Shown: positions 1 through 46,312, counted from the stretch's first letter. The stretch is 64,000 bases of DNA from Burkholderiales bacterium (GCA_036787045.1 DAIQQA010000003.1:13797-77796); one strand, 5' to 3'. The notes: generated by a model not told the origin, from the sequence alone. Program-made: numbers and translations.

Positions 1-3000
1 CCCGGCGGTCGACCCCGCCGGCCGCATCGAGCTGAGCCGTTACGACTTTCGCGCCGAGGTGGAGCGGCAGTACGCCCGCTATCTGGAGAGCGCGTGGCAG
101 CCGTGGGCCGAGGCCGAGCGTCGTCGCCGTCGTCTGGCGCGGCTGTACGTACAGCTCTTCACTTTGCACCAGGAGATGTCGGGCGCCATCTCCGAGGCAC
201 AGGTGGAGCTCGTGTGGGGCGTCGGTCTGGGCGTGTGGCGACACGAGGCGACCACGGTGGCCTATCCGCTGATCACGCGGTTGGTGGATCTGAGCTTCAA
301 TCCGCAGACTGGCGCCGCCGAGGTCAGGCCGCGCGACCTCGATCCGCGCCTGGAGCTGGACTTCTACGCCGCTGTGGACCGCCCCGGGGTCGCGCAGGCG
401 GAGAAGCTGGCACGCGAGTACCTCTCTCGCGCCACGACCACGCTGTCCCCCTTCGAGGCCGACACCTATGACCCCCTGCTCGACATCGCGAAGAGTTGCC
501 TGAACTCGGCCGGCGAGCTCGAGTCGGGCGCCATCCTGTTCGGCGATCTTGCGCTTGCGCAGCCCGACGATCAGCTCAAAGTGAGCCGATCCTGGGTCCT
601 GTTCGCGCGTCCGCGCAGCACCAACGTGCTGGTGCAGGATCTGGACAAGTTCACCTTACTCCTGCGCAACGCTTCGGACGCGCCGCTGCCGGAGGCCGTC
701 AGCTCGCTCGTCACCGAGCCTGCTGCACAGACTACGCCGGTCGTGTTACCGGCGTTCCGCGGCGTCAGCGCCGGGGCGACAGCAGCGGGCGACCTGTGCT
801 TCCCCAAGCCGTTCAACGACGAACAGGTGCGCGTGGTGCAGCTGCTCGAGACCCACGACGGCGTAGTGGTGCAGGGGCCGCCGGGGACCGGCAAGACGCA
901 TACGATTGCGAACATCATTTGCCACTGGCTGGCCAGTGGCCGGCGCGTGCTGGTGACCTCCATGCAGGAACCGGCGCTCGCTGTGCTGCGCGACCAGCTT
1001 CCCGAAGAGCTCCGGCCCCTCGCGATCGCACTGCTGGCCAGCGAGCACGAAGGCATGCAGCAGTTCGAGGAATCGATCCAGCGGATCGCCACCGGCGTGC
1101 AGAGCATCGACCCGGCGGTGACCGCCCGTGAGATCGCGCGCCTGCAGGAGACCATCGGAGCGCTGCACGTCCGCATTACGCGCATCGATACCGACGTAAG
1201 CCGCTGGGCGCGGCTGAACCTTCTGCCGATCGACCTGGGCGGAGACGTGGTGGACCCACTCGACGCCGCCCAGCAAGTTGTCGCTCAGGGCGGGGTGTTC
1301 GAGTGGCTGCCCGACCGGCTCGGCGCCGGTCCGCAGTACGCGCCGCGCTTCGACGATGAGGAGCTCGTGCAGCTGGAGCAGGCGCGGCAGCGCCTCGGCG
1401 AGGACGTCGCCTATGCGGCGTGCAGTCTGCCTTCGCCTGCGGCGTTTCCCGATACGGCGGTGCTGGTGCAAGCGCACCAGGACCTGTTGCGCTCGGGGCG
1501 GACCACCGAGGCACTGCGCAATGCCGAGCTGCCTGTGCGGGTCGATGCCGGCGCGGACGGGGCGGCCGATGCGCAGGCACTGGCAGGACAGATCGAGCGG
1601 GTGCGTGCGCTGCGTGTCGAGATCGCGGAGGTGGGCAAGAGCTGGGTGCCGGGGGTGCGCGAGCGCTTGCGTGCGGCAACAGCCGGGCACGAGTTCGGCC
1701 TGCTCGAAGGCCTGGGGCGCGAGCTCGACCAGGCGGGCCAGGCCCGGCGCGCGTATCTGGCCCGGCCCGTCACGGTGCCGCCGCCGGACGAGCTGGCCTC
1801 CGGGTTCGTTCAGGCGGTGGACAACCTCGCGCAGGGCAAGCGGCCGTTCGGCTTCGGCGGAGTGTTCGGGCGTGCAGCACAGACCAAACGGACCCTCGAT
1901 TCTGTACGGGTCGGGGGCCAGGTGGCGGTGGGCGCCGGAGACTGGCAACACGTGGCCGGATACCTCGCGCTGCAGAGCAAGTGGCGCGAGCTCGCGCAGC
2001 GCTGGAACACGCTCGCATCCGAGCTCGGGCTGGAGACCGTCGCCGCCGACGACCCCAACGGGGGGCTGGCGGCCTCGTCCCAATATGCGCTTTACAAGCG
2101 CGTGAAGGCCCTGGTGGCGGAGGAGGCCGAGCTGGTGCGGCAGGCCACACGGGTGTTTCCCGCCTGGGCGGCAGCGTACCGGCTGGACCAGGACCCAGCC
2201 GCGCTGGCCGAGCTGGAGCGCGTGTTGGTCCACCAGCAGGCCACGCAGCGGCTGTCGCAGGGGTGGGCGGTCAAGGAGCGCATGCAGCGGGCACTCGAGG
2301 GTACGGGCGGGCGTGTGATCGAAGACATCCGCGCGTTCGTCGCTGGCACGCTCGGCGATCCGGCGGTGGACGAAGGCGGTCTGCTGGCGCGCTGGTCGGC
2401 GCTGATGGCCGAGCTCGCGCGCGTGCATGCCCTGGCTCCGCAGCTCGCCGTAGTGACCGAGGTCACCCAGCGCGTCGCCGATTCGGGAGCGCCGCAGCTC
2501 GCGCAGCGCTTGCGCCGTCCGGCGGACACGCGCGAGGAGCCCTTGCAGCCCGAGCGCCTGCGTGCCGCGTGGCGGCTGCGGCGGTTGGCGACACACCTTG
2601 CCATGATCGATTCGCAGGACGAGTTCGAGAAGCTTGCGCGACTGCGCAGCGACCTGGAACACGATCTTGCCCGTGCGTACCACGATCTGGTAGTTGCGCG
2701 CACCTGGCTGAAACTGGCGGAGAATGCGACGCCCCACGTGCGCGCAGCGCTGCAGGCCTATCTGAACGCCGTGCAGAAGATCGGCAAGGGCACCGGCAAG
2801 CGCGCAGTGCGCTACCGGCAGGACGCGCGCGCCGCCGCGGCCGATGCCAACCACGCGGTGCCGTGCTGGATCATGCCGCACTACCGCGTCTCGGAGTCGC
2901 TCCCGGCCGAGCTGGGCTGCTTCGACCTGGTGATCATCGACGAGGCCTCGCAGTCCGATCTATCGGCGTTTCCGGCGCTGCTGCGCGCGCAGAAGATCCT

Positions 3001-4216
3001 GATCGTCGGCGACGACCGACAGGTCTCCCCGGAAGGGGTGGGGATGGAGGAGGAGAAGGTGAAGTCGCTCATGCAGCGCTTCCTCTCCGACCAGGTACCG
3101 CTGTACCGGGCGCAGATGTCGCCGGAGCGCTCGGTCTACGACCTGGCCAAGGTTGTGTTCGCGCGCAGCGGGGTGATGCTCAAGGAGCATTTCCGCTGCG
3201 TGGCGCCGATCATCGAGTACTCCAAGCGCGAGTTCTATCACCACGAGCTGCGGCCACTGCGCCTGCCGCGGCCGTCCGAGCGGCTGGACCCGCCGCTGGT
3301 CGACGTGTTCATCGAGGATGGCGAGCGCAAGGATGGGCTCAATCCAGCCGAGATCGAGTTCATCGTGCAGGAGATCGCGCGCATTGCCTCCGACCCGCGC
3401 ATGGCACGCCGCTCCATTGGCGTGGTTTCGCTGCTCGGTGAGGACCAGGCGCTGAAGGTATGGGACCGGCTCGCCGACGAGCTGGGGCCACAGGCGCTGC
3501 AGCGCCATGCCATCGCCTGTGGCGATGCGCGCACCTTCCAGGGCAAGGAGCGCGACATCATGTTCCTGTCCATGGTGTGCGCACCCAACGATGTGGGCGC
3601 ACCTCTGGCCCGGGAGATGTTCGCGCAGCGTTTCAATGTGGCGGGCTCGCGCGCGCGCGACCGCATGTACCTGGTGCGCTCGGTCGCCCTCGAGCACCTC
3701 TCGGAGTCCGACCGCCTGCGCCGCGGCCTGCTCGCGCACTTCTCGCGACCGTTCCTGGAGGAGGAGGCGAGGGTCGACGATCCGCGCGACCTGTGCAGCT
3801 CGTTCCTCGAGCGCGAGTTGTACGACTGGCTGCTCCTGCGGCGGTACCGGGTCACTCCGCAGGTGCGGGTAGGAGGCTACCGGATCGATCTGGTCGTTGA
3901 GGGTGCGAACAACGACGCGCGGCTGGCTGTGGAGTGCGATGGGGACAAGCATGGCGGCCCCGAGAGCTGGGCCGAGGAAGTGCGGCGGCAGCGCGTGCTG
4001 GAGCGCGCCGGCTGGCGCTTCTGGCGCTGCTTCGCCGCCAGCTTCGTGCGCCGCCGCGAGGCTGTGCTGGCCGACCTCACGGCCGCCCTGTCGGCCTGCG
4101 GCATCGAGCCGGATGGCATCGCCGGCGGGCAGCCCCTGGTGCTGGCCGAGGTGCGGCGTGTGCGCATGGGCGCAGCACCCCCGCAGCAACCTGTTGCCTC
4201 GCCCCTGAACGCGTGA
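1..4216 (+). CDS. SF1 (DNA2/NAM7/Upf1-like) helicase with C-terminal Vsr-like (MTES_1575-type) nuclease domain; 5' end outside window
   Basis: Frame is open from base 2 (PAVDPAGRIELSRYDF...). Walker A QGPPGTGKT, motif II IIDEASQ, VGDDRQ, TFQGKERD, RFNVAGSRAR; C-terminal RIDLVVEG..LAVECDG..RQRVLERAGWRFWR. Confidence 0.85.
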   Translation, partial: PAVDPAGRIELSRYDFRAEVERQYARYLESAWQPWAEAERRRRRLARLYVQLFTLHQEMSGAISEAQVELVWGVGLGVWRHEATTVAYPLITRLVDLSFNPQTGAAEVRPRDLDPRLELDFYAAVDRPGVAQAEKLAREYLSRATTTLSPFEADTYDPLLDIAKSCLNSAGELESGAILFGDLALAQPDDQLKVSRSWVLFARPRSTNVLVQDLDKFTLLLRNASDAPLPEAVSSLVTEPAAQTTPVVLPAFRGVSAGATAAGDLCFPKPFNDEQVRVVQLLETHDGVVVQGPPGTGKTHTIANIICHWLASGRRVLVTSMQEPALAVLRDQLPEELRPLAIALLASEHEGMQQFEESIQRIATGVQSIDPAVTAREIARLQETIGALHVRITRIDTDVSRWARLNLLPIDLGGDVVDPLDAAQQVVAQGGVFEWLPDRLGAGPQYAPRFDDEELVQLEQARQRLGEDVAYAACSLPSPAAFPDTAVLVQAHQDLLRSGRTTEALRNAELPVRVDAGADGAADAQALAGQIERVRALRVEIAEVGKSWVPGVRERLRAATAGHEFGLLEGLGRELDQAGQARRAYLARPVTVPPPDELASGFVQAVDNLAQGKRPFGFGGVFGRAAQTKRTLDSVRVGGQVAVGAGDWQHVAGYLALQSKWRELAQRWNTLASELGLETVAADDPNGGLAASSQYALYKRVKALVAEEAELVRQATRVFPAWAAAYRLDQDPAALAELERVLVHQQATQRLSQGWAVKERMQRALEGTGGRVIEDIRAFVAGTLGDPAVDEGGLLARWSALMAELARVHALAPQLAVVTEVTQRVADSGAPQLAQRLRRPADTREEPLQPERLRAAWRLRRLATHLAMIDSQDEFEKLARLRSDLEHDLARAYHDLVVARTWLKLAENATPHVRAALQAYLNAVQKIGKGTGKRAVRYRQDARAAAADANHAVPCWIMPHYRVSESLPAELGCFDLVIIDEASQSDLSAFPALLRAQKILIVGDDRQVSPEGVGMEEEKVKSLMQRFLSDQVPLYRAQMSPERSVYDLAKVVFARSGVMLKEHFRCVAPIIEYSKREFYHHELRPLRLPRPSERLDPPLVDVFIEDGERKDGLNPAEIEFIVQEIARIASDPRMARRSIGVVSLLGEDQALKVWDRLADELGPQALQRHAIACGDARTFQGKERDIMFLSMVCAPNDVGAPLAREMFAQRFNVAGSRARDRMYLVRSVALEHLSESDRLRRGLLAHFSRPFLEEEARVDDPRDLCSSFLERELYDWLLLRRYRVTPQVRVGGYRIDLVVEGANNDARLAVECDGDKHGGPESWAEEVRRQRVLERAGWRFWRCFAASFVRRREAVLADLTAALSACGIEPDGIAGGQPLVLAEVRRVRMGAAPPQQPVASPLNA

Positions 4217-4373: not shown

Positions 4374-4685
4374 CTAGCCACGCTCCCACATCACATCCGC
4401 GTTCTTCTTCGCAGCGCGCTCGAGAAGCTCGATGAGAGGGTGGGCGCGCTGGCGCAGCGACACAGGCATGTGCCCTTCCCGGCGATCCTCCTCATCGGCT
4501 TGCGTAGCCGGCAGTGAGGCGCCCTGCTCCAGTGCGCGAGTGAGCCGCCCGATCGCTGCCGGGATGTCCGGGGCGAGGATGGCGCTGGGCACCGTGCCGG
4601 AATGCCCCATGAGCTTGAGCAGTTGCACGGCTACATCGCCGAACATCGTGAGTGTGCCGACCTTGCTGTCGAACTTTACGAGCAT
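4374..4685 (-). CDS. DUF1840-like small protein (103 aa)
   Basis: MLVKFDSKVGTLTMFGDVAVQLLKLMGHSGTVPSAILAPDIPAA...VSLRQRAHPLIELLERAAK; ATG at 4685 inside the longer 283-aa ORF call. Confidence 0.75.
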   Translation of the reverse strand: MLVKFDSKVGTLTMFGDVAVQLLKLMGHSGTVPSAILAPDIPAAIGRLTRALEQGASLPATQADEEDRREGHMPVSLRQRAHPLIELLERAAKKNADVMWERG

Positions 4686-4813
4686 GCGGGACTCCGGGGG
4701 AAGTCGTGGATGCGCACGAGTATAGGCCCAAGCGCCGCGTTGGTGCAGGCGCCGGCCGCACAGCGGGCTGCTGATCGCTGTGCCCGGCCCAGGTACTTCA
4801 ACCCGTTGATTCC

Positions 4814-4849
4814 ACCTCTCACCACGAAGGCACGAAGACACGAAGAAAA
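4814..4849. repeat. Solo family-A arm (CACGAAG type)
   Basis: acctctcaccacgaaggcacgaagacacgaagaa matches the reverse complement of the 32094-32127 arm at 32/34 positions; no partner arm seen nearby. Confidence 0.75.
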
Positions 4850-4956
4850 CCGAAAGGACGAGAACAGGTGCGCCTTGCCGATGTCCACGTCTGCCGGGCG
4901 ATGTTTCGCAAGGACTGTGTCGCTGTACTAGCGATCGATCCAGGGATGTGCAGCGT

Positions 4957-5406
4957 TCAGGCGGCGCCGCGTGCGCGTTGCCGAGCCAGCATGCACTGGA
5001 CGTGGGGCACGTAGAGCAGGTTCGAGATCTTGCGCACGAGGTGGTCCTCGTACTGATCGAGACCGCCGTCTGCGTAGGCCACCCGCCACAGGTGCTCGAC
5101 GAAGCGGATGCGTTGGTCCATCTCGAAGCGGCGGTTGATGACCGATACCTGCGCGTAGTAGGAAGTGAGGCGGCCGGACCGGTGTGCAGCGTCGCCCAGC
5201 AGGGCATCCGCCCGCGATGTATCAAGCCCGACCAAGTCGGCTAGAGCAGCGCGCGCTGCCGCCAGATCCTCCTGCCGGACCTCGGCGTCCATGCGGGTCA
5301 TCTCGTAGAGCAGCGTGGCGATTGCGCCTTCGAGCGCGTGCTGTTCGAATGCCGGTGATTGTGCTTCCCGGGGCCGCGCGAGCAGCCTGGCGAGGTTCTT
5401 GAGCAT
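4957..5406 (-). CDS. TerB-family (tellurite-resistance-like) protein
   Basis: ATLLYEMTRMD...LWRVAYADGGLDQYEDHLVRKISNLLYVPH pattern typical of TerB-like proteins. Confidence 0.8.
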   Translation of the reverse strand: MLKNLARLLARPREAQSPAFEQHALEGAIATLLYEMTRMDAEVRQEDLAAARAALADLVGLDTSRADALLGDAAHRSGRLTSYYAQVSVINRRFEMDQRIRFVEHLWRVAYADGGLDQYEDHLVRKISNLLYVPHVQCMLARQRARGAA

Positions 5407-5587
5407 GGGCGGAGCAGGACGGTGAATCGAGTTCGAATGCGTGTATATCAGAGCGCCTGGACGGCGGGTAGTTCGTGTGCAGAGTTGCGACGCCGGTCCG
5501 GGCGTTCGATGCTGGGGAATACCCGGTTCGGAAACGCGTCGTGAGGGTCTGACTGGGGTACCGGCGCCAGGAGGCTGGCGCGCGATG

Positions 5588-6037
5588 CTATCTGACCGCG
5601 TAGCCCAGGGCGTTCAGCTGCTCGTAGAGCTGGCGCCGTGTGGCTGCGACATCCGCTGGGCGGTTATCGCGGAAGCGTCTCGCCTCGTCGGCCGTGTAAG
5701 GCCGGAAGTCCTGGGGCAGGGACTCCCCTGCGAACGTCGTGACGACGTAGTTGGTTACTGCCGCGCGCCGGTCATCGGGCAGGCCAGCATTCATGAGCCC
5801 GGGTACCTGCATCAGGAAGGCACGTCCCTCGGGCAAACGCAGAAAATGGCCCACTTGGTCACGGAAATCCGGGACGCCGAACTCCGGATGGCCGCTGCCA
5901 TCCATCGAGTGGCAGCCGGAGCAGTGCAGCACGTAGTCGTGCTCGCTGCCCTGGTAGGTCTTGACGTCGGCCCGGCCGGCGAATGCAACGCAACCAAGCA
6001 GCGCACTCGCGATGATCAGTGCTGGCCGAGTGCTCAT
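5588..6037 (-). CDS. Periplasmic monoheme cytochrome c
   Basis: Signal peptide then CSGCH heme motif; start overlaps the upstream cytochrome stop. Confidence 0.85.
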   Translation of the reverse strand: MSTRPALIIASALLGCVAFAGRADVKTYQGSEHDYVLHCSGCHSMDGSGHPEFGVPDFRDQVGHFLRLPEGRAFLMQVPGLMNAGLPDDRRAAVTNYVVTTFAGESLPQDFRPYTADEARRFRDNRPADVAATRRQLYEQLNALGYAVR

Positions 6038-6498
6038 GGCGCGAGGATCTTGGTGCGCAGCTGACGCTGCTCGGTGCTCGCGTGCGGGGTCGCGCGCACG
6101 GACGCCATCTCCGCGGCATCGTACGGCTTCCAGTCGGGGGAGAGGTGCGCTGCGTTCAGCACGGAAGCCACGTGATTGGCCAGCCCGGCTACCTGCTCGT
6201 CGTTCAGCTGCCCTTGCGCGGGCATGCCACTGTTGAAGACCGCGTCGCCGACCCTGATCTGACCGGTGAGCCCGAAGGCGATCACGCGCGGCAGGTAGCT
6301 GCGCTCGGCGACCAGCTTCCGCCAGTGCGCGCCCTCGAGCGGCGGGGCCAGGCCCGGCGTGCCGCTGCCATCGGCCTGGTGGCAGGCGCTGCAGTTCTGA
6401 ACGAACAGGCTGGCGGTGGCGGGGTCCTGCGCGTTCGCCGCCGCCGTGGCGAACGCCAGTACTACCCAGGCAAATGCAGTGTGCCCGTCACGCCGCAT
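6034..6498 (-). CDS. Periplasmic class I monoheme cytochrome c
   Basis: Signal peptide, CSACH motif, GMP candidate distal Met; overlaps the mauA-like stop. Confidence 0.85.
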   Translation of the reverse strand: MRRDGHTAFAWVVLAFATAAANAQDPATASLFVQNCSACHQADGSGTPGLAPPLEGAHWRKLVAERSYLPRVIAFGLTGQIRVGDAVFNSGMPAQGQLNDEQVAGLANHVASVLNAAHLSPDWKPYDAAEMASVRATPHASTEQRQLRTKILAP

Positions 6499-7027
6499 CC
6501 GATACGCCGACGATCACCGACACCGTGCAGTGATACATGGTCGCCGTGTTGGCCATGCACCAGTTGATGTCGTTGAACACGCCCATGCGGTAGCCCGGGC
6601 GCTCGCGCTCGTTGAAGTTGCACAGGCAGCGGCCGCACGCGGTCTTGCCGCAGCAGTCGTTGTAGCTCACCAGGTAGTCCTTGCCGTCCTTCGGGTTCTT
6701 GCAGGTGCCCACCCAGGTGACCTTGGAGGCCTCGGCGCCGGGCGGGCAGGATGTGATCGACCCGCCGCAGCATCCGCACAGGAACCCGTCCAGCGCGCAA
6801 TTGCGCCAATACTCGCACGCCATCGGGTCGTTCGGCCCGCCGCCGCCACCGCCACCGTGCTGGGCGTAGGCCTTGCCGGAGCGGTCGAACGGGAGCATGG
6901 GCAGCACTGCGCTGCCCACCAGCGCAGCGCCGAGCTTGGCCACCGCACTGCGGCGGCTGGTGAGCTGCGCGGCGTGGCGCACGCGGCGCTCGGTGAAGCG
7001 ATCAAGCCATTTTTCGAAGAGCGTCAT
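6488..7027 (-). CDS. mauA: TTQ amine dehydrogenase light chain (MauA/AauA-like)
   Basis: Tat-like SRRSAVAKLG leader, Cys-rich core, TWVGTC and NDINWC carrying the two TTQ-forming Trp equivalents; GGAGG RBS before ATG 7027. Confidence 0.9.
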   Translation of the reverse strand: MTLFEKWLDRFTERRVRHAAQLTSRRSAVAKLGAALVGSAVLPMLPFDRSGKAYAQHGGGGGGGPNDPMACEYWRNCALDGFLCGCCGGSITSCPPGAEASKVTWVGTCKNPKDGKDYLVSYNDCCGKTACGRCLCNFNERERPGYRMGVFNDINWCMANTATMYHCTVSVIVGVSDAA

Positions 7028-7071
7028 GTTCACCCCTCCCTAGGTTGCAAATTCGGGCCTGCGTTGCGGAT

Positions 7072-7683
7072 TCAGGCAGTCTCACCAGGTTGCGTGGCTA
7101 CACGGTCGCGGATGTAGTCCTGGACGGTGCCGACCCCCAGCTCCTTGGCGTTGAACAGGCTTTCCAGGTGCTCGCGCGAATTGACGAGCCCCTTGGCGCG
7201 GATCACGCCGCGCTCGTCGATCAAGACGGCGTAGGGCAGTCGGCTCACCCGATAGGTCATTCCGAGGTCGGCCGACAGCACATACGGAAACTGCTGCAGC
7301 CTGGCGCTGCCATAGAAGCCCAGATGCTGGGTGGCCTCACCGTCGCTCGCCAGCACGACGTCGAGCCACTCGCGCTCCGCCTGCGAGGCGGATTTCAGCA
7401 CAGGCAGCAGCTTCTTGCAGACCGGGCAGGTGGGCGACAGGAAGAAGATCAGCTGGCTTTTCGGCTGTTCGCCGCCGATAGCCACCAGCGATCCGTTGAG
7501 CGCGGGCAGCTCGAAGCGCGGGGCCAGGTCGCCCAGCTTCGGTCCAGCGTCGGTGACCAACGCGCCCATCGGGGCGACGCGCTCGTACAGAATGCCCACC
7601 TGGCGCGCCAACGCCCACAGCGCCACGATCACCGCGAGCATCAGCACCCACAGCAGGGCGTTGGATATCATCAGACTAGTCAT
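7072..7683 (-). CDS. mauD: Methylamine dehydrogenase accessory protein MauD (thioredoxin fold)
   Basis: N-terminal TM helix, LARQVGILYERVAPMGAL, FLSPTCPVCKKL, KGLVNSREHLESL. Confidence 0.9.
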   Translation of the reverse strand: MTSLMISNALLWVLMLAVIVALWALARQVGILYERVAPMGALVTDAGPKLGDLAPRFELPALNGSLVAIGGEQPKSQLIFFLSPTCPVCKKLLPVLKSASQAEREWLDVVLASDGEATQHLGFYGSARLQQFPYVLSADLGMTYRVSRLPYAVLIDERGVIRAKGLVNSREHLESLFNAKELGVGTVQDYIRDRVATQPGETA

Positions 7684-7689
7684 GCCACC

Positions 7690-8247
7690 TCAACCCTGCT
7701 CGGACCGCTTGATCTGCGCCAGGCGGCTGGCCTGCCGCAGCAGCTCGTCGGCCATGAGATACAGCGCGTAGAACGCCAGAACGCCCAGCACCAGCGTCAG
7801 GGCATCCGTCCACTCCATGCTCCGCTCCACGGTCGGCCGGCTGGCGACGAGCGCCGCCGCCGCGAGCACGACGTTGCGTGCCACCAGCCCCCATGACAGC
7901 GGATGGGAGGCGCCCCCGCAGCCGCAGTCGATGTCGTGCCGCCCGCGCAGGAGATTGATGACCATCGCGACAGCGTACAGCACGACCAATGCAGCCAGCG
8001 CGAGCAACGCCGGCGGCCGCGTCACCGGCACCAGGATAGCGACCGCCAGCGCGACTTCGAGGATCGGCAGAAGTCGCGCCACCAGCGGCACCAGCGCTTG
8101 CGGCAGCAGGCCGTAGGCCGCCAGCGACCCGAAGAACACGTCGGGGTCGCTGAGCTTGTGCCAGGCGGCTGCGAGCATCACCAATGCTAATGCGCCGACG
8201 ATGGTCCCGACCGCGATCGGGTCGGCCGCAAACGTGGACAGCTCCAT
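7690..8247 (-). CDS. mauE: Methylamine utilisation membrane protein MauE
   Basis: Hydrophobic helices with IDCGCGG motif; lies between mauB and mauD; ATGA overlap with mauB. Confidence 0.9.
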   Translation of the reverse strand: MELSTFAADPIAVGTIVGALALVMLAAAWHKLSDPDVFFGSLAAYGLLPQALVPLVARLLPILEVALAVAILVPVTRPPALLALAALVVLYAVAMVINLLRGRHDIDCGCGGASHPLSWGLVARNVVLAAAALVASRPTVERSMEWTDALTLVLGVLAFYALYLMADELLRQASRLAQIKRSEQG

Positions 8248-9404
8248 CAGAACGTCTCGATCTGAGCGGGCACCGCGCCGATCTGCGTCTTGCTGTGGAC
8301 CTTCGGTTTCGCGCCCAGGTCGATGACCAGCAGCTCGGCCTTCATGATGTCGATGGCGTACAAGCGTTTGCCGTCCGGCGAGGGCTCCAGCGCAATGGTC
8401 GTGTGCCCGGGCATGCGCACCACCCGCTTCTTCGACTTGACATCGAAGCCCCAGATCTCCTCAGCCGGGTTCTTGTGGCTGCCCTCGGCGCCGTTGGAGT
8501 GCATGGTCACGTAGAGGCGCCCGGTCCCGGGATGCACGGCCAGCGGCTGATAGCCACCCGGGCGCCAGTTCTTCCTCTTGTCGGCCGCGGCCGTGACGAG
8601 CGACCAAGTGCCCGTCAGGTTGGCGCTGTCCCCACCGAGCTCCACTGAGGCGATGTTGCCTTGGAAGGAGACGAAGTGATAGGTGTCCCCGTCCTGCTCG
8701 CCCTGCATGAACCAGGCATCCTTGTCCGGATCGAACAGCTTGCCGCTGTTGGCGCGCGCGGCTTGCTCGCCATCGGCGTTCAGGGTGACGGTGACGATCG
8801 AGCCGTCGCCGCAAAGGGCGGAAAAGCGGTCCGACCGCGAGGCCGGCACGTAGATGCCCCAGCACCCCGGGGTTGCGATCTCCGATGCGACCTGCCGGTT
8901 GCGCATGTCGACGACGGTCACCGAAGTGGCCGGTGTGGCGTTTTGCACGAACAGCCAGCGCTTGTCAGCCGAGAGCCGCAACAGCCCTTCGTAGTTGAGC
9001 GCCATGGCGCGCTTGGGCGGGATGACGATCTCGTACTTGAACGACAGCGAATCCGCGTCCCACACCTCGACGATATCGGTGCGCTCGCCGCGCTGCCCGC
9101 GCGACAAATAGCCGGTGGCGATGATCAGCTCCCGCGTGTCGGCATTGAGGACGTACTGGCCAGTGAAGCCGGTGCCGACCACGCCCAGATAGTTGCCCGT
9201 ATCGGTATCGACCACGTGCAGCTTGCCGTCGGCGATGTAGTTGATCGCGACATCACCGACATAGGCGCGGTTCTTGGCCTTGATGGTGGGCTCGACCGTG
9301 AGCGTTTCGGTCGGCAGCTCGGCAAGCGCGGCAGCCGAAACAGCGATCCCCAGAGCAGCGGCAGCGCACGCCAGGCGCGGCGCACGCAGAAAGTCAGGCG
9401 TCAT
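8247..9404 (-). CDS. mauB: TTQ amine dehydrogenase heavy chain (MauB/AauB-like beta-propeller)
   Basis: Signal peptide from ATG 9404 with GGGAGGG RBS; TGYLSRGQRGERTD, VQNATPATSVTVVD, PGCWG, HKNPAEEIW motifs. Confidence 0.9.
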   Translation of the reverse strand: MTPDFLRAPRLACAAAALGIAVSAAALAELPTETLTVEPTIKAKNRAYVGDVAINYIADGKLHVVDTDTGNYLGVVGTGFTGQYVLNADTRELIIATGYLSRGQRGERTDIVEVWDADSLSFKYEIVIPPKRAMALNYEGLLRLSADKRWLFVQNATPATSVTVVDMRNRQVASEIATPGCWGIYVPASRSDRFSALCGDGSIVTVTLNADGEQAARANSGKLFDPDKDAWFMQGEQDGDTYHFVSFQGNIASVELGGDSANLTGTWSLVTAAADKRKNWRPGGYQPLAVHPGTGRLYVTMHSNGAEGSHKNPAEEIWGFDVKSKKRVVRMPGHTTIALEPSPDGKRLYAIDIMKAELLVIDLGAKPKVHSKTQIGAVPAQIETF

Positions 9405-9479
9405 TGTTCCCTCCCCGAGAGCGAGCGGGCCAGGCAGCCCGCCAAGCGGAACCGAGAGTACTACTGTCTCAGGCGGGCC

Positions 9480-9568
9480 GCAACTGGTCGGCCGTGAGCG
9501 CAGCCTGCGGAAGCCGTCGCGGACTGCGCCGCGCAACACCACCTACTGCGTTGCACCAAATCTGGTAA
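9480..9568 (-). promoter_or_regulatory. Possible sigma54 promoter with NtrC-like half-site upstream of mauB
   Basis: Minus strand CGGCCGACCAGTTGC (9480-9494) has GG and TTGC at -24/-12 spacing; TGCACCA half-site at 9552-9558. Imperfect match. Confidence 0.3.
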
Positions 9569-9602
9569 CTTGCGGTGCGTCCTCGACGAGCGCGGCACCG
9601 CT

Positions 9603-10613
9603 TCAGGGCAGCACCTGTACGGTCTTGAGCAACTCCAGGGTGTAGGCTTTTCGGTAGTCGACATCCTGCCTCACCAGTCCGGTGCTTGCCATGAACGCGA
9701 AGGTCTGTCCCCAGCGCCCGTCGGTCATGGTGAGGATTCCCCCTGTCCTTGCGTCGCCGCCGGTCACCAGGCCGTACTCCAGCATCTTCTTCAGCCCGAA
9801 GGCCATCAGCGCATCTTCCATCTGCGGGTTGTCGCGCCTGATGAGAGCGTTGCCGGGCGCCGGGTTAGCGAGGTAGCTCTTCCACCCTTCCGCGGTGGCC
9901 TGCAGAAAGCGGCGGATCACGTCGGGCTTGGCCTTGACCATGGTCTGCGTGGTGACGATGGTCTGGGCGTAGGGCGGGTACCCGGCGTCGGCAAGCAGGA
10001 ATACGGTGGGCTTGACGCCGCCTTTCTCGATGGAATAGGGCTCGGAGGTCGCGTAGCCCTGCTGGGCGATGCTCTTGTCCACCAGGAACTGCTGAACGCT
10101 GAACGCATAGGGGCGCTTCTGCGCGTCGGTGAAGCCGTATCTGGCCTTGAGCCAGGGCCAGAACGTCGTTTCGCTCGCCTGCCCGATCAGCAGGGTGCGG
10201 GTCTTGAGCTCGGTCATCGTCTTCACGTCGGGGTGGGCGATGATGACCGCGGGATCCTTCTGGAACGTGGCCCCGACGGTGATCACGGGTAAGCCCTGCT
10301 CTACCAGCTTGATGGTCTGCAGGTCGTAGCCCATGACCAGATCGGCCTGCCCCGCAAGCAACAGCTGCACGACGTTCACCTGGGGTCCACCCATGCGCAC
10401 ATCGACGTCGAGCCCGTGCTTGCGGTAGGTGCCTTCGGCCACGGCCTGGTAGAACCCGCCGTGCTCGGCCTGCGCCAGCCAGTTCGTAAGGAACACCACT
10501 TTCGGCAGGGTCTCGGCCCAGGCCGTCTGCGCAGCGAGCGCCAGCGCGAGCCAGGCGAACAGCCCCAAGGCCTTGCGACCCGAAGCGATGCGGGGGATGT
10601 GCGGGCTTTTCAT
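9603..10613 (-). CDS. ABC transporter substrate-binding protein, NMT1/THI5-like
   Basis: Signal peptide; TNWLAQAEHGGFYQA, GGPQVN, FQKDP motifs. Confidence 0.9.
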   Translation of the reverse strand: MKSPHIPRIASGRKALGLFAWLALALAAQTAWAETLPKVVFLTNWLAQAEHGGFYQAVAEGTYRKHGLDVDVRMGGPQVNVVQLLLAGQADLVMGYDLQTIKLVEQGLPVITVGATFQKDPAVIIAHPDVKTMTELKTRTLLIGQASETTFWPWLKARYGFTDAQKRPYAFSVQQFLVDKSIAQQGYATSEPYSIEKGGVKPTVFLLADAGYPPYAQTIVTTQTMVKAKPDVIRRFLQATAEGWKSYLANPAPGNALIRRDNPQMEDALMAFGLKKMLEYGLVTGGDARTGGILTMTDGRWGQTFAFMASTGLVRQDVDYRKAYTLELLKTVQVLP

Positions 10614-10832
10614 GATGGTGCTTCCCGAGACGGTGGTCGCGGCAGGTTAGCGGCAGGCGGGGCCCGGCGCAAGGCCGCGGGGCACGGCTCCAGCCCGCCG
10701 CACCCCTAACTTTCGATAGCTGCATCGGGCCGCCGGCCTGTGCGATTCTCCACGGCACGGGGGACGTACTCCCCGGAGCGCACCGAGCCGTGAGCCACGC
10801 CGTCGCGGCAGATCGACCATAGGGGAATCGAC

Positions 10833-11501
10833 ATGAAGGATCTGACCGAGTCGCAGGTCGCCGAGCTGCTCGAGCGCATGGCCGCGGGAGACGAGCGCAG
10901 CCTTCGCGTCCTGTACCGCGCCTATGGACGCCGGGTGTACGCCTTCGCGCTGAACACCCTGCGCGATCCGCACGAAGCCGAGCAGGTGTTGATCGATACG
11001 ATGTTCGAGGTGTGGCGGCAGGCCACGCGCTTCAACCATGCCTGCCGGTTCACCACTTGGCTGCTGGGCATCGCCCGGAACAAGGCGCTGCACGTGCTGC
11101 GCGCCCGCAGGCCCGAGCACGACGATCTCGCGGACATCGAGGCGCGGCTGGCCTGTGAGGACGGCGATCCTTATCTTGCGGCCTGGGAGCGCCAGCGACG
11201 CGAGCGTCTGATGCACTCGCTCGAGGAGTTGCCGCAGGCCCAGCGCGAATGCCTGCGGCTCGCGCTGCACGATGGCTTGTCGCTTGTCGAGATCGCGCGC
11301 ATCCAGGATTGCCCCGCGAACACCGCGAAGGCCCGGCTGTTCCGGGCCCGGCGGACGGTGCGCGCCAGCCTCGCACGCTTTCTGGACAGCGATGGCGCCT
11401 GGCTCGCCGAGCGCGAAGCAGCGCGCGACGAAACGGGTGGTGAGCCGGATCCGCGCTGGGCAGGGGCCAGCGCCTGCCTGCAGGAAGCGGCGCTCGCATG
11501 A
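10833..11501 (+). CDS. ECF RNA polymerase sigma factor
   Basis: Region 2 (LYRAYGRRVYAFA, FTTWLLGIARNKA) and region 4 (LPQAQRECLRL..GLSLVEIA..NTAKARLFRAR); AGGGG RBS. Confidence 0.9.
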   Translation: MKDLTESQVAELLERMAAGDERSLRVLYRAYGRRVYAFALNTLRDPHEAEQVLIDTMFEVWRQATRFNHACRFTTWLLGIARNKALHVLRARRPEHDDLADIEARLACEDGDPYLAAWERQRRERLMHSLEELPQAQRECLRLALHDGLSLVEIARIQDCPANTAKARLFRARRTVRASLARFLDSDGAWLAEREAARDETGGEPDPRWAGASACLQEAALA

Positions 11502-11534: not shown

Positions 11535-12320
11535 TCAGTGGTCCGGTACGAGCTCGCTCTCGTGCCAGTGCCGCAAGGCCATGCGGGCGAGTCCGGACAC
11601 CAGGGAGAACAGCGCAACGCCCGCGAGCGTGATGAGCAGCAGCGCGGCGAACAGGCGCGGGATGTTGAGCTGCAGTCCGGACAGCAGGATCTGATAGGCC
11701 AGCCCGGACGCGGTGCCGCCAGTGCCGGCGACGAACTCCGCCACTACCGCCCCGATCAGCGCGAGGCCGCTGGAGACCTTCAAGCCCGCGAAGAAATACG
11801 GCAGCGCGCTGGGGATGCGCAGGCGCACCAGCGTCTGCCAGCGTGTGGCGCGGCTGAGCCGGAACAGGTCGAGGAGGTTGGGATCGACACTCCTCAGCCC
11901 CACGGTCGTGTTGGAGATTACCGGGAAGATGGCGACGATGGTGGCGCAGATGACCAGCGCCAGGGTCGGGTTCTTCACCCAGATGATGATCAGCGGGGCG
12001 ATCGCCACGATCGGGGTGACCTGCAGCAGGATGGCATAGGGCAGCAGGCTGGCTTCGATGACGCGGCTCTGCACGAACACGAAAGCGATCGACACCCCCA
12101 CAACGACTGCCAGACCAAGGGCGAGGACAGTGATGCGCAGCGTGGCCAGCAGCGACGCCCACAGCAGCGCCCAGTCCTGCAACAGCGTGCGCAGGACGAG
12201 CAGCGGCGAAGGCACCAGATAGCTTGGCACCTGGTAGGCGGTGACCAGGAGCTGCCATAGTCCCAAGGCCACCAGTCCGACGGCCATGGGCGCGGTATAG
12301 GTCAGGAGTCTGCGATTCAT
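11535..12320 (-). CDS. ABC transporter permease, NitT/TauT family
   Basis: TM helices; RLRIPSALPYFFAGLKVSSGLALIGAVVAEF EAA-type loop. Confidence 0.9.
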   Translation of the reverse strand: MNRRLLTYTAPMAVGLVALGLWQLLVTAYQVPSYLVPSPLLVLRTLLQDWALLWASLLATLRITVLALGLAVVVGVSIAFVFVQSRVIEASLLPYAILLQVTPIVAIAPLIIIWVKNPTLALVICATIVAIFPVISNTTVGLRSVDPNLLDLFRLSRATRWQTLVRLRIPSALPYFFAGLKVSSGLALIGAVVAEFVAGTGGTASGLAYQILLSGLQLNIPRLFAALLLITLAGVALFSLVSGLARMALRHWHESELVPDH

Positions 12321-12480
12321 CGAGGAAAGAAAACAGCCACAGGGGTCACACAGTGAGGAAGAAACGACGATGGTCCCGTCTCGTCACCGGTGCCTGGCCC
12401 CCTGACGCTGCCGGTACCCCCGTACCGAATGATCTTCTCCCTGTTCCTGTGCCCTCTGCGGCTCAACCAGTTTTTCGGGT

Positions 12481-13266
12481 TCATGCAGTGGCGGGCTCGG
12501 CGCTGCCCGCGGCCAGCAGCTCGGAGAGCCGCCGGCACCACTGCGCGTAGCGTTCGCTCATGCGGAAGGCCTCCGTGCGCGGATGCGGCTCGTCGATGGC
12601 CACCTCGCCGACGATGCGGCCGGGTCGGGCAGACAGGACAAGCACCCGCATGGACAGGAACACCGCCTCGTAGATGGAGTGGGTCACGAACACGACGGTG
12701 AGGTGCCGGCGCTCCCACAGATCCCGAATGTCACGGTCCAGCCGCGTACGCGTAATCTCATCCAGCGCACCGAACGGCTCGTCCATGAGCAGCAACCCGG
12801 GTGCCGTTACCAGCGCCCGGGCGATGGAAGTGCGCATCTGCATGCCGCCGGAGAGCTCGCGCGGGTAGCTGCTCTCGAAGCCGGTGAGTCCCACTAGCGC
12901 CAGAGCGTCGCGCACCCGCGCGTAGGCCTGCGCGCGGTCAGCCCCGGCGAGGTCCAACGGCAGTCGCACGTTCGCCGCCACGCTCGCCCAGGGCATGAGT
13001 GTGGGCTGCTGGAACACGAAGGCCACGGGACGCGCCGGCGCGCCGCCGCCGTGCAGGTGCAGCCGTCCGCTGCTGGGCGGTGTCAGTCCCGCGATCATGC
13101 GCAGCAGCGTGCTCTTGCCGCAGCCCGACGGGCCGAGCAGGGTGACGAACTCACCGTTGCGCACCGCGAGGTCGATCCGTTCCAGTGCGCGCACGCCGTT
13201 GGGGAACACTTTGTCGACGCCCTCGGCGGAGACGGCCAGCCCGGCAGGATCGTGCGTGGGGTCCAT
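12481..13266 (-). CDS. ABC transporter ATP-binding protein, NitT/TauT family
   Basis: GPSGCGKST, LSGGMQMR, LLLMDEPFGALD. Confidence 0.92.
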   Translation of the reverse strand: MDPTHDPAGLAVSAEGVDKVFPNGVRALERIDLAVRNGEFVTLLGPSGCGKSTLLRMIAGLTPPSSGRLHLHGGGAPARPVAFVFQQPTLMPWASVAANVRLPLDLAGADRAQAYARVRDALALVGLTGFESSYPRELSGGMQMRTSIARALVTAPGLLLMDEPFGALDEITRTRLDRDIRDLWERRHLTVVFVTHSIYEAVFLSMRVLVLSARPGRIVGEVAIDEPHPRTEAFRMSERYAQWCRRLSELLAAGSAEPATA

Positions 13267-13535: not shown

Positions 13536-14678
13536 TTACCCCAACGCACTGGCGAGGGCCGTCTGGTCCACCTCCGCCACGCTCGCGCGCCCGAGCAGCG
13601 CGAGGGCCACGTCCAGCTCGACGCGGAAGATCTCGATGGCGCGGGCCACGCCTTGCTCGCCATCGCAGGCCAGCCCATAGAGGAACGGCCTGCCCGCCAT
13701 GCAGGCCCGCGCACCCAATGCAACCGCCTTGAGGATGTCGCTGCCGCGCCGTACGCCGCCGTCCAGAATCACCTCGGCGCGCCCCTCGACCGTGGCGGCG
13801 ATGAGAGGCAGCACGGCTGCTGCCGAGGGTGCTCCGTCGACCTGCCGGCCGCCGTGGTTGGAGACGATCACGGCGTCGGCACCGTGCTCGACGGCGAGGC
13901 GCGCATCGTCCGGCGTCAGAATGCCTTTGATTGCCAGTTTGCCCTTCCAGCGCGATCGGCACCAGTCGATGTGCGACCAATCGACGGTGAAGTCGTACTG
14001 CTCCTGAGCGAAGCGGGCGATGCTGATGATGTCGCTGCTGCCCACGAGGCTCCCGGCGAGGTTGGCGAACGTCACCCGCGGACCCAGGGCGACGTCGCAG
14101 AGCCAATGGATACGGCGTGCCAGGTCGAGCGCGTTGCGCCAGGTCACGCGCGGCGGGACGGTGAAGCCGTTTCGCACATCGCGCTCGCGCGGGCCCTGCG
14201 CTTTGGTATCCACCGTTACCACCAGCACCTCGCAGCCCGCCCGCGCCGCTCGTTGCAGCAGCGACTCGTTGATGCTGCGATCCTTGAGCAGGTAGGTCTG
14301 GAACCAGAACGGCTGGAGACTGCCCCGCTCGACGTCCTCGATGGCGCAGGCGGCCATCTGGCTCAGGCAGTAGGGGATGCCCGCGCGCTCCGCGGCGCGT
14401 GCTTCGGCGATCTCGCCGGCGCGGGCTACCAGCCCCGCCAGCCCAGTCGGCGCGACCACCAGGGGCAAGTCGATGCGCCTGCCCAGCAGCGTGGTGCCGA
14501 GGTCGCGGTCGGACACGTCGGTCAGCACGCGCGGCATGAGCGTCAGCCGGGCCAAGTCCTCGTGGTTGACGCGCAGGGTGATCTCGTCCTGCGCGCCACC
14601 GTCCACGAAGTCGAAGATCGCCTTGGGCAGGCGGCGACGTGCATGGAGGCGCAGGTCTTCGATGCAGGCTATCGACAT
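13536..14678 (-). CDS. FMN-dependent alpha-hydroxy-acid oxidase/dehydrogenase (LldD/MdlB family)
   Basis: MSIACIEDLR..RRLPKAIFDFVDGGA, VVAPTGL, VSNHGGRQ, DGGVRRGSDILKAVALGA. Confidence 0.92.
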   Translation of the reverse strand: MSIACIEDLRLHARRRLPKAIFDFVDGGAQDEITLRVNHEDLARLTLMPRVLTDVSDRDLGTTLLGRRIDLPLVVAPTGLAGLVARAGEIAEARAAERAGIPYCLSQMAACAIEDVERGSLQPFWFQTYLLKDRSINESLLQRAARAGCEVLVVTVDTKAQGPRERDVRNGFTVPPRVTWRNALDLARRIHWLCDVALGPRVTFANLAGSLVGSSDIISIARFAQEQYDFTVDWSHIDWCRSRWKGKLAIKGILTPDDARLAVEHGADAVIVSNHGGRQVDGAPSAAAVLPLIAATVEGRAEVILDGGVRRGSDILKAVALGARACMAGRPFLYGLACDGEQGVARAIEIFRVELDVALALLGRASVAEVDQTALASALG

Positions 14679-14836
14679 GTCCTGGAGGCGGGCAATGCTC
14701 GGATCCTCGAGCCCTGAGCGCGGCGGTTTTCGGTTGGCCCAATCCTGAGGCAAACCCGCGTGCAGCTCAAGGGCCTGGCCCGCTGCCCGGCAGCCGCGTA
14801 AACTCGCGCCCCTTCTGTAAGTCGATTCAGAGCACC

Positions 14837-16444
14837 ATGCATACACATGCAGGAGTTGTCAGATCGCTGCTCGCGGCTATCGCCGTTATGGCGGGCATTG
14901 CGGTCCCGCCGGCTGCGCTGGCGCAAACGGATGCGGTTGCAGTCATCCAGGCCCGCGTCGGGCAGTTGCGCAACGGGGTCGAAGTCAGGATCGGCCAGCA
15001 GTCCATCGCCTCGAGCGTGGTGCTGCCGGAATTCTACGAGCAGCGGGATTACCGGCCCGCCTGGGGCGACCCGCACAACCTCGAGGCGCTGCTCGCGGCC
15101 GTGCGCGCCAGCGGCGGGGACGGCCTCGATCCCGAGGACTACCACCTCTCCGCTCTGGGCCAACTGCGCGCAGGGGCGCAGGGTGGGGAGCGGGATGCCG
15201 ACCTGGACCTGCTGGCCACCGACGCCCTGATCCGGCTCGCCTATCACCTGCGCTTCGGCAAAGTGGATGCGGCGAGCTTCGATCCGCACTGGAACTTCCG
15301 CCGCGACTACGACGCGGTACGGGCGGCGGCGCCGGCCGCGGCGATCCAGCGCGCCCTCGACATGGGGCACGTGGCGGAGCAACTGGACGCACTGCGTCCG
15401 CACCATCCATTCTATGACGGGTTGCGCACGGCGTTGGAGAAGTACCGGCAGATCCAGGCCGCCGGTGGCTGGAACCCCCTTCCGGGTGGGCGGTCCCTCA
15501 AGCCGGGAGCCGCCGATCCCCGCGTGCCTGCGCTGCGCGAGCGCCTCAGGGTGGAAGGCGATCTGGGCGCGGCCGGGGGAGAGGGCGACGAGTACGACGA
15601 GGGCGTGGTGGCTGCGCTGCAGGCATTCCAGGAGCGGCACGGGCTCAAGCCCGATGGCATATTGGGCGTGCGGACGCTGCGCGCGCTCAACGTGCCCGTG
15701 ACCCAGCGCATCGACGAGATCCGGCTTTCGCTCGACCGCAGCCGCCAGCTGTTGCACGATCTCCCCGAGCGCGTGGTCGTGGTCAACGTGCCGGCGTTCC
15801 GCGTCTACTACGCGGATGCATCGGGTCGGCGGTTCGCCGCCAACGTGGTGGTCGGCAAGCCCTACGCCCCGACGCCTATCTTTCGCGCGGAGATCACGCA
15901 TGTGGTGCTCAACCCCACTTGGGTGGTGCCGCCCGGCATCTTGGAGCGCGACATCCTGCCGGGGTTGCGCAAGGACCCCGACTACCTGCGCAAGAAAGGC
16001 CTGAGGCGGGTTGGCGGGCAGGTCGTACAGGACCCGGGACCCAACAATGCGCTCGGGCGCATCAAGCTGATGTTTCCCAACCCGCATCTGGTGTACCTGC
16101 ACGACACACCCCAGAAGGACCTGTTCGAGGCCGACGGCCGGACGTTCAGCAGCGGCTGCATCCGGGTGCAGAACGTGTTCGATCTGGCGGCTCTGGTGAT
16201 CGACGATCCGGAGCGCTGGTCGAAGGACAAGCTGCTGGAGGCGGTGGACACGGGTGACACGCGCACCGTCGTCCTCAAGCACAAGGTGCCGGTGCTGGTG
16301 ACCTATTGGACCAGCGCGGTCGCGCCGGACGGGCGTGTGCACTTCTACGAGGACGTGTACGAGCGTGACCCCGCCAGCCTGGCAGCCCTGGATGCGCCCT
16401 TCAGCTTCCCGCGCGCCGCGGTTCGAGCGGCCGGGGGCAGGTGA
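14837..16444 (+). CDS. Murein L,D-transpeptidase (YcbB/LdtD-like)
   Basis: Signal peptide from ATG 14837, scaffold and PG-binding domains (FQERHGLKPDGILG), YkuD motif YLHDTP..FSSGCIRV. Confidence 0.9.
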   Translation: MHTHAGVVRSLLAAIAVMAGIAVPPAALAQTDAVAVIQARVGQLRNGVEVRIGQQSIASSVVLPEFYEQRDYRPAWGDPHNLEALLAAVRASGGDGLDPEDYHLSALGQLRAGAQGGERDADLDLLATDALIRLAYHLRFGKVDAASFDPHWNFRRDYDAVRAAAPAAAIQRALDMGHVAEQLDALRPHHPFYDGLRTALEKYRQIQAAGGWNPLPGGRSLKPGAADPRVPALRERLRVEGDLGAAGGEGDEYDEGVVAALQAFQERHGLKPDGILGVRTLRALNVPVTQRIDEIRLSLDRSRQLLHDLPERVVVVNVPAFRVYYADASGRRFAANVVVGKPYAPTPIFRAEITHVVLNPTWVVPPGILERDILPGLRKDPDYLRKKGLRRVGGQVVQDPGPNNALGRIKLMFPNPHLVYLHDTPQKDLFEADGRTFSSGCIRVQNVFDLAALVIDDPERWSKDKLLEAVDTGDTRTVVLKHKVPVLVTYWTSAVAPDGRVHFYEDVYERDPASLAALDAPFSFPRAAVRAAGGR

Positions 16445-21802: not shown

Positions 21803-21835
21803 CCGAGGTTTGATTGCGTCTTGAGTAGCGATGCG

Positions 21836-42136: not shown

Positions 42137-42447
42137 TGTGCGGCATGTGCGGCGTGTTCCTGGGCGAGTCGAACTGGAGCGACACGACTGTCACTTCGGT
42201 GACGGGCGGAGGCCGCACGCGCCGGCACGAGCGCCTGCATCGGGTGGCGCTCACCAATCGGATCCTCAAGCACTGCGCGCTCAAGGTGTCCGACTGGAAC
42301 GGCGTCTCCTACGTGCTGAGCAGCGCCACCGGCCAGACGGCGATCGTCGACAGCATCGCCGCAGTGTGGCCGGTTGCCGAGCAGCTGCGCAAGCGACCGA
42401 TCGATCCGCTCGACGAGCGGCTGATCGCCGCCCTCGAGCGCGGGTGA
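42136..42447 (+). CDS. Small hypothetical protein with N-terminal CxxC (MCGMCG)
   Basis: ATG overlaps the potA-like TGA; 103 aa; directly precedes the CobW GTPase. Confidence 0.7.
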   Translation: MCGMCGVFLGESNWSDTTVTSVTGGGRTRRHERLHRVALTNRILKHCALKVSDWNGVSYVLSSATGQTAIVDSIAAVWPVAEQLRKRPIDPLDERLIAALERG

Positions 42448-42463
42448 GGAGCGGGGCGCCGCC

Positions 42464-43516: not shown

Positions 43517-43559
43517 GCAAGACGCAACGTACAGCGCACAGCGAGAGGAGATTGGTGCA

Positions 43560-44945: not shown

Positions 44946-44948
44946 ACC

Positions 44949-46262: not shown

Positions 46263-46312
46263 CGATCGCGCACGAACCGGGCTCGACTGCATCGCGAAGG
46301 AGGTAACGAGCT

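Follow-up and report, generated by a model that had tools for sequence, protein, structure and literature searches.

A putative aromatic amine dehydrogenase-type operon with two c552-like cytochromes and no linked mauG: a candidate heme protein for tryptophan tryptophylquinone maturation

Results

An operon for a predicted amine dehydrogenase and two cytochromes

We analyzed a stretch of DNA of 64,000 nucleotides (nt) from a Burkholderiales bacterium, hereafter the window, in which six closely packed genes on the minus strand (positions 5588-9404) form an operon for a predicted tryptophan tryptophylquinone (TTQ) amine dehydrogenase and two cytochromes c. The first gene (8247..9404) encodes an aauB-like heavy (alpha) subunit of 385 amino acids (aa) with a signal peptide (PF06433, 3.6e-37) and coincides with an identical 385-aa gene call of the Joint Genome Institute (JGI). 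Its stop codon overlaps by 1 nt the start of an aauE/mauE-like gene for a membrane accessory protein (7690..8247; 185 aa; PF07291, 1.1e-30), and this is followed by an aauD/mauD-like gene (7072..7683) for a thioredoxin-fold accessory protein of 203 aa with a CPVC motif, which matches Redoxin/Thioredoxin_2 and scores 209.7 bits with the NCBIfam MauD model TIGR02661 (cut-off, 188.6). The aauA-like gene for the small (beta) subunit (6488..7033) encodes 181 aa when read from the GTG at 7033, or 179 aa from the ATG at 7027, and has a Tat-like SRRS leader (PF02975, 1.4e-53). In an alignment with 2AGL_D, the small chain of Alcaligenes faecalis aromatic amine dehydrogenase (AADH), W107 (codon 6713..6715) corresponds to the quinone-bearing beta-Trp109 and W158 (codon 6560..6562, also read directly from the sequence) to the cross-linked beta-Trp160, while D126 and T170 align with Asp128beta and Thr172beta; we take these to be the two TTQ tryptophans, the catalytic aspartate and the threonine in the numbering of that chain.

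The last two genes encode predicted periplasmic monoheme cytochromes c. The gene of the first, Cyt1 (6034..6498; 154 aa; CSACH, with the Met ligand in GMP; PF00034, 1.4e-11, and PF13442), overlaps aauA by 11 nt, and that of the second, Cyt2 (5588..6037; 149 aa; CSGCH; PF00034 at 18.8 bits, under the cut-off of 21.3), overlaps cyt1 by 4 nt (ATGA) on direct reading of the sequence. Both proteins have signal peptides and a C-terminal PY(D/T)AxE motif, KPYDAAE in Cyt1 and RPYTADE in Cyt2. The mauB-E-D-A order, the two TTQ tryptophans and the overlapping cytochrome genes with their motif had been described in an original prediction made for this window, and they are confirmed here by the Pfam and NCBIfam matches, the 2AGL_D alignment and the open reading frame (ORF) sequences. 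A scan of positions 4800-10800 for sigma-70 promoters and intrinsic terminators gave no match.

The operon is of the aau type

In phmmer searches of the PDB the heavy subunit matched the A. faecalis AADH heavy chain at 1.4e-84 and the heavy chains of methylamine dehydrogenase (MADH) at 2.6e-30 or weaker. The small subunit matched the AADH small chain at 1.6e-52, compared with 1.5e-36 for Paracoccus denitrificans-type MADH and, over a longer stretch, 8.8e-46 for the P. versutus MADH precursor. Neither subunit reached its MADH equivalog (TIGR02658 and TIGR02659), the heavy one scoring 138.3 against 454.45 bits and the light one 172.2 against 196.85 bits. Since both subunits are much nearer to AADH than to MADH and both fall under the MADH cut-offs, the operon is by sequence of the aau (aromatic/aralkylamine dehydrogenase) type, aauB-aauE-aauD-aauA-cyt1-cyt2, and the same two observations rule out a methylamine dehydrogenase proper. 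The matches identify AauB and AauA as the predicted subunits of a periplasmic TTQ amine dehydrogenase, and AauE and AauD as the predicted conserved maturation proteins of its small subunit.

The A. faecalis aau (aromatic amine utilization) cluster, sequenced in 2001 by Chistoserdov, reportedly consists of orf-1, aauBEDA, orf-2, orf-3, orf-4 and hemE. The A. faecalis locus recovered through its small subunit (L081/L082), which we take to be that cluster, contains an Aldedh gene, the porin-like orf-1, aauBEDA, a gene for a 166-aa protein with no Pfam hit, an AraC gene, orf-4 and hemE. The 166-aa protein, that is orf-2, is 36% identical to Cyt2 (1e-30) and 24% identical to Cyt1, and the canonical Met is absent from it; by these identities Cyt2 is the ortholog of A. 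faecalis orf-2. The original prediction was right about a TTQ dehydrogenase operon. This operon is not of an unknown kind: it is aau-type, and its second cytochrome has a counterpart already described in A. faecalis.

Cyt2-type genes accompany aau-type operons

A scan with the small subunit, at one genome per species, returned more than 553 relatives, the best 80 loci of which were examined. All 80 presented the B-E-D-A order followed by cytochromes, and these cytochromes form two orthologous groups, the Cyt1 type and the Cyt2 type. Allowing for an intervening Cyt1 where both are present, a Cyt2-type gene lies directly after aauA in 77 of the 79 assessable loci. The Cyt1 type occurs in 52 of the 80; both types are found in 50 of 79 loci, always with Cyt1 before Cyt2, and 27 loci carry Cyt2 only. 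The nearest relative (L001) has the same layout as the window, and the next eight have Cyt2 only. The original prediction suggested examining whether the pair co-occurs with mauG-less mauBEDA clusters; it does in the 50 loci, but the conserved unit is Cyt2 alone. No ORF with two hemes was found within 10 kb in any of the 80 loci.

Some related loci differ in their surroundings. The alphaproteobacterial L034 (2489-4800) has three cytochromes after aauA, two of the Cyt1 type and one of the Cyt2 type, and then a tetraheme class III cytochrome c. In a neighbor survey (L004, L020, L021, L024, L025, L010 and others), frequent companions of aau-type operons were a divergent AraC regulator (40 loci) and an aldehyde dehydrogenase (33 loci), with a DUF1329/DUF1302/BNR/MMPL-RND set as a further neighbor and an amidase in Cupriavidus. 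None of these genes adjoins the operon in the window.

Cyt2 and MauG are not found at the same locus

Only three ORFs in the 64 kb bear a CXXCH motif, and none bears two. We carried out tblastn searches with queries from the control locus L088, whose mau cluster is P. versutus-like: the MauB, MauE, MauD and MauA queries all matched the window, the related loci and the A. faecalis locus, and those for MauF, MauC (amicyanin), MauJ, MauG, MauM and MauN matched none of them. A scan of the window for cupredoxin ligand motifs yielded none in a plausible coding ORF, tblastn with an azurin query gave no match in the window, and no cupredoxin was found in the loci with Cyt-type genes by amicyanin or azurin tblastn. 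The motif scan and the two tblastn searches therefore disclosed no cupredoxin acceptor in the window or in the related loci. The absence of mauG, mauF and amicyanin from the window, as originally predicted, is borne out by the CXXCH, tblastn and cupredoxin scans.

A control set of 76 MADH-type loci (L088-L163) came from metagenomes scanned with the small subunit of P. versutus MADH. When loci with at least 3.5 kb of downstream sequence were compared, a diheme ORF was present within 3.5 kb of mauA in 50/50 MADH-type loci versus 0/70 aau-type loci, and the two MADH-type diheme ORFs that were sampled are CCP_MauG by Pfam. Cyt1 and Cyt2 had no match in the 76 MADH-type loci, and a hidden Markov model classification of all loci disclosed none with both MauG and a Cyt1- or Cyt2-type gene. 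Cyt2 and MauG are thus mutually exclusive at the sampled loci, a statement about linked genes, as the genomes were not searched for unlinked mauG or CCP genes. In a neighbor-joining tree of small subunits, built without support values, the MauG-bearing clade is nested among the Cyt2-bearing lineages. Amicyanin or azurin often accompanies MauG in MADH-type loci, although the crude ORF filter gives no clean frequency. Two architectures were seen there, one with a gap of about 1.1-1.4 kb between mauA and mauG (amicyanin, mauJ) and another with mauG directly after mauA; in the latter an azurin gene is nearby in 13 loci, mostly about 3 kb downstream of mauA.

Cyt1 and Cyt2 are c552-like, and the Cyt2 family lacks the methionine loop

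The best PDB match of Cyt1 is cytochrome c552 of Thermus thermophilus (2e-18), which is also nearest to Cyt2 in both sequence and fold; after it come the cytochrome domain tethered to the nitrite reductase of Ralstonia pickettii and cytochrome subunits from membrane dehydrogenases. The AlphaFold2 (AF2) model of Cyt2 (predicted local distance difference test, pLDDT, 87) matches in fold only c552-like cytochromes, c552 itself being the best. Compared with each other by hhalign, the Cyt1 and Cyt2 families align with a probability of 99.6% (E 3.7e-24). These matches place Cyt1 and Cyt2 as paralogous class I monoheme cytochromes of the Thermus c552 family. Cyt2 falls short of the cut-off of every Pfam and NCBIfam family and belongs to an uncurated family.

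The c552 C-terminal extension FKPFTAEEVKKLR corresponds to the PY(D/T)AxE motif, which is kept only loosely in the Cyt1 family. Because the similarity to c552 includes this extension, the motif, first noted as shared by the pair, is a hallmark of the c552 family and is ruled out as a signature of these two proteins. A similar result was obtained for the proposal of a split maturation module, if read as MauG by descent: each cytochrome has one CXXCH, neither matches the MauG/diheme peroxidase family (PF03150), and no MauG or CCP was among the PDB matches. Both proteins are in the class I c552 family, and neither Pfam nor the PDB sequence, profile and fold searches gave a CCP_MauG signal, so that a "split MauG" by homology is ruled out.

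The two families differ at the axial ligand. In the Cyt1 type the axial Met is invariant (54/54 family members), so that these alignments show Cyt1 as a protein that retains canonical His/Met ligation. In the hhalign comparison, a 16-residue deletion in Cyt2 takes out the Cyt1 segment TGQIRVGDAVFNSGMP, which is the axial-Met (MP) loop, and the Cyt2 profile aligns with c552 in two pieces, skipping c552 residues 52-68. A near-invariant VPG replaces the Met loop. Apart from CXXCH, no Met, His, Lys or Cys column exceeds 45% among 380 distinct Cyt2-type domains from protein searches, and a conserved distal ligand is likewise missing from 78 locus-derived sequences. Where the alignment places the Met ligand of c552, only 16 of the 380 domains have Met; 22 have no Met at all after CXXCH, and six have neither Met nor His. 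On these profiles, the Cyt2/orf-2 family shows loss of the Met-bearing loop and no conserved sixth ligand, and we infer that the sixth heme position would be open in the family.

Fused cytochromes extend the association

An exhaustive search with the Cyt2 profile gave, at E<1e-10, 1035 representatives. Among the top 150, about 25 are fusions of 280-370 aa (approximately 60 clusters at 90% identity), in which an N-terminal Cyt1-like domain with the invariant MP precedes a C-terminal Cyt2-like domain with VPG and no Met, that is, the gene order found here. The Cyt1-like domain superimposes on c552 with a template-modelling (TM) score of 0.9 and 40% identity. The AF2 model of a natural fusion gave no whole-protein match to CCP or cytochrome c4 and no CCP-like heme-heme arrangement, the model being uninformative on geometry.

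Looked at in the reverse direction, the association also holds: six of six sampled Cyt2-containing proteins, four of them fusions and two of them unfused Cyt2-type proteins of distant lineages (Myxococcota among these), are encoded directly after heavy-MauE-MauD-light genes, and no CCP_MauG was found within 8 kb of them. The Cyt2/operon association reaches beyond the AADH clade, since the small subunits of these six loci are only about 45-50% identical to AADH and MADH alike.

Three of the loci with a fused cytochrome have a convergent multicopper oxidase gene that overlaps the 3' end of the cytochrome gene (L164 8878-10119, L165 8884-10257 and L166 8947-10353, all on the minus strand); two of them also have a multiheme cytochrome and a cytochrome b upstream. 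This oxidase may serve as a periplasmic electron sink in the fused-cytochrome clade.

Other genes in the window

The remaining content of the window is unrelated to the operon and comprises a helicase-nuclease, ABC transporters, an extracytoplasmic function (ECF) sigma factor, a flavin mononucleotide (FMN) dehydrogenase and genes for pyrimidine catabolism. The large helicase-nuclease (1-4216, +), for which the JGI calls give 1532 aa, is truncated by the start of the window and runs convergently toward the aau operon side; it combines superfamily-1 helicase domains (AAA_11/AAA_12) with a restriction-endonuclease-like domain (MTES_1575/DUF559) at its C terminus. Two genes on the strand of cyt2 lie immediately downstream of it, one with DUF1840 (4374-4685, -) and one with a TerB domain (4957-5406, -); TerB also follows the cytochromes in L001 and lies about 7 kb away in several Zoogloea/Azoarcus loci. 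On the other side, 198 nt upstream of aauB and on the same strand, is a gene for an NMT1/THI5-type ABC substrate-binding protein (9603-10613, -), also found in L001, which is parted from ABC permease and ATPase genes (11535-13266, -) by the ECF sigma factor gene (10833-11501, +). An FMN-dependent alpha-hydroxy-acid dehydrogenase (13536-14846, -; PF01070, 5.8e-136) may have a connection with the metabolism of aromatic compounds or hydroxy acids. Farther away, an ORF of 496 aa (21803-23293, +) has a strong coding signal (GC content at third codon positions, GC3, 0.89) and no Pfam match at E<=0.001, and a CobW-family GTPase, PreT/PreA-like dihydropyrimidine dehydrogenase subunits and an M20 amidohydrolase (42425-47551, +) look like a cluster for reductive pyrimidine catabolism, ahead of which are genes for a polysaccharide deacetylase and an ABC transporter of the sugar type.

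Discussion

The operon belongs to the aau kind known since 2001, and Cyt2 is its known but uncharacterized orf-2. How TTQ is formed in AADH, with no MauG in the cluster, has been a question since that sequencing. The literature available to us, which did not include the original aau papers, held nothing on the function of orf-2 and no report of a family-wide loss of the Met loop, of two-cytochrome or fused variants or of a strict complementarity with MauG, and in a 2025 review of protein-derived cofactors the sole route given for TTQ formation is that of MauG and MADH (PMC11951088). The comparative data presented here single out a small, easily expressed candidate, which accompanies nearly all of the mauG-less TTQ operons sampled, is never found with MauG and appears to have lost the usual heme ligand.

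We lean slightly toward a division of labor, in which Cyt1 would carry electrons and Cyt2 would replace MauG in TTQ maturation, as the best explanation for these results, with a probability of about 0.4. Where present, Cyt1 would link reduced TTQ to the respiratory chain as an electron carrier; operons with Cyt2 only would depend on an unlinked carrier, such as azurin, the accepted acceptor of A. faecalis AADH (EC 1.4.9.2), whose gene lies outside the aau cluster. Cyt2, with a heme that would be open or weakly ligated, would act on the enzyme itself and use peroxide or oxygen for the oxidative TTQ-forming steps that MauG performs in MADH. Cyt1 and Cyt2 would then make up a two-heme unit, one His/Met and one open, analogous and not homologous to the MauG/CCP diheme peroxidases. 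Met-less class I cytochromes c do show peroxidase activity.

The original prediction had left open whether the cytochromes were the electron acceptor or a maturation module, and the comparative results raise the second option. The Cyt2 heme lacks a conserved sixth ligand, as catalytic and ligand-binding hemes typically do, and the exclusion between Cyt2 and MauG is strict. Moreover, maturation genes (mauE and mauD, and mauG in MADH) are otherwise always linked, and a patchily distributed operon should be self-sufficient for its cofactor, while a generic acceptor can suffice; A. faecalis has orf-2 only, and its characterized acceptor is the unlinked azurin.

Several points weigh against a maturation role. 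Small cytochromes encoded beside periplasmic dehydrogenase genes are usually electron acceptors, and neither Cyt1 nor Cyt2 resembles MauG or CCP in sequence or fold. The bis-Fe(IV) state of MauG needs two hemes (PMC11951088), and about one third of the loci, including that of A. faecalis, have Cyt2 alone, while two others (L020 and L075) have the Cyt1 type only. The AF2 model of a natural fusion shows confident domains joined by a disordered linker (predicted template-modelling score, pTM, 0.67) and no confident inter-domain geometry. The window's own Cyt2 may be a His/Met cytochrome, since it is among the few members with a Met (Met82) aligned with the Met ligand of c552, a column with Leu in 53 of 72 close homologs. 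Lastly, one replacement in the course of evolution may account for the exclusion pattern.

A nearly as likely explanation is that both cytochromes form a dedicated electron chain, from TTQ to Cyt2 and/or Cyt1 and on to a terminal oxidase, in the place of amicyanin or azurin, with TTQ matured by an unlinked MauG/CCP-type peroxidase or by a route that does not involve these genes. Both are small periplasmic class I cytochromes whose nearest relative, c552, is an electron donor to terminal oxidases and whose other relatives are carriers; their genes occupy the mauC position of many mau clusters, in loci where no cupredoxin was found. That each paralog can stand alone (27 loci with Cyt2 only and two with Cyt1 only) fits one shared generic function. 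The window's Cyt2, moreover, has a Met at the canonical position. Fusions of two carrier domains are common, as in cytochrome c4, and the convergent multicopper oxidase of the three fused loci is a possible terminal acceptor. However, no sixth ligand is conserved across the Cyt2 family, and we know of no monoheme protein of that sort that is purely an electron carrier. The use of azurin by A. faecalis, whose only such cytochrome is the Cyt2-type orf-2, also argues against a carrier role. Finally, such a chain would demand that the TTQ-forming enzyme be unlinked in every mauG-less lineage sampled, in several phyla, even though linkage is always kept for mauE and mauD and is seen for MauG in 50/50 MADH-type loci.

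It is improbable that Cyt2 is only an auxiliary ligand-binding or peroxide-reducing heme protein, neither main acceptor nor TTQ maker (an electron sink to H2O2 or O2, a protector of TTQ or of the thiol-rich small subunit, or a sensor), for although the missing Met loop suggests an open distal position and a His/Met heme paired or fused with an open one is the layout of peroxide-reducing diheme peroxidases (family properties in PMC6405878), the neighborhood bears no sign of peroxide or nitric oxide metabolism and the near-obligate tie to the structural genes (77/79 and 6/6) is stronger than such a role would lead one to expect.

The maturation role of Cyt2 may be taken a step further, in a tentative proposal to which we give slightly less credence than to the role itself: the orf-2/Cyt2 family would be a new class of heme enzyme, a class I cytochrome c, Met-less and probably five-coordinate, by which TTQ is made in all TTQ dehydrogenases outside the MADH clade, alone, with a c552-type partner or fused to it, and that would be ancestral and replaced once by MauG at the base of MADH. 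If Cyt2 is a maturase, it represents a new way to make a protein-derived quinone and would be a minimal heme catalyst of protein oxidation at long range. As an electron carrier only, Cyt2 would be unusual, and the enzyme that forms TTQ would be encoded elsewhere.

Comparison with known systems

The closest known system is the A. faecalis aau cluster, with which the window shares the B-E-D-A order and the lack of mauF, G, L, M, N, C or J in the cluster, and whose solved enzyme is the nearest to its heavy and small subunits. The two small subunits are only 55% identical, however, and in the window the gene of an additional cytochrome of canonical c552 type, Cyt1, separates aauA from the orf-2 homolog, and the operon has no adjacent aldehyde dehydrogenase, porin-like orf-1 or AraC regulator. 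The mau clusters, mauFBEDA(CJ)G(L)MN, have homologous genes for the heavy subunit, MauE, MauD and the small subunit in the same order, with the same TTQ tryptophans. They differ in that MADH-type loci carry the CCP_MauG diheme gene (50/50), often together with amicyanin or azurin, and never cytochromes of the Cyt1 or Cyt2 type.

The likeness to the bacterial cytochrome c peroxidase (bCCP)/MauG superfamily (PF03150) is by analogy only, in that Cyt1 plus Cyt2, or the fusions, combine one His/Met heme with one heme that has no conserved distal ligand; as we understand it, active bCCP has the same ligand layout (PMC6405878). Sequence and fold similarity to Cyt1 and Cyt2 are lacking, the domain order is different, the fusion gives no sign of a fixed heme-heme geometry, and many operons have a single Cyt2 heme. 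In contrast, T. thermophilus c552 (PDB 1C52) is the best match of both Cyt1 and Cyt2 in sequence and fold, with the C-terminal extension in common. The Cyt2 type departs from it in having neither residues 52-68 of c552 nor its Met ligand, and in being encoded in operons with a TTQ dehydrogenase instead of a terminal oxidase.

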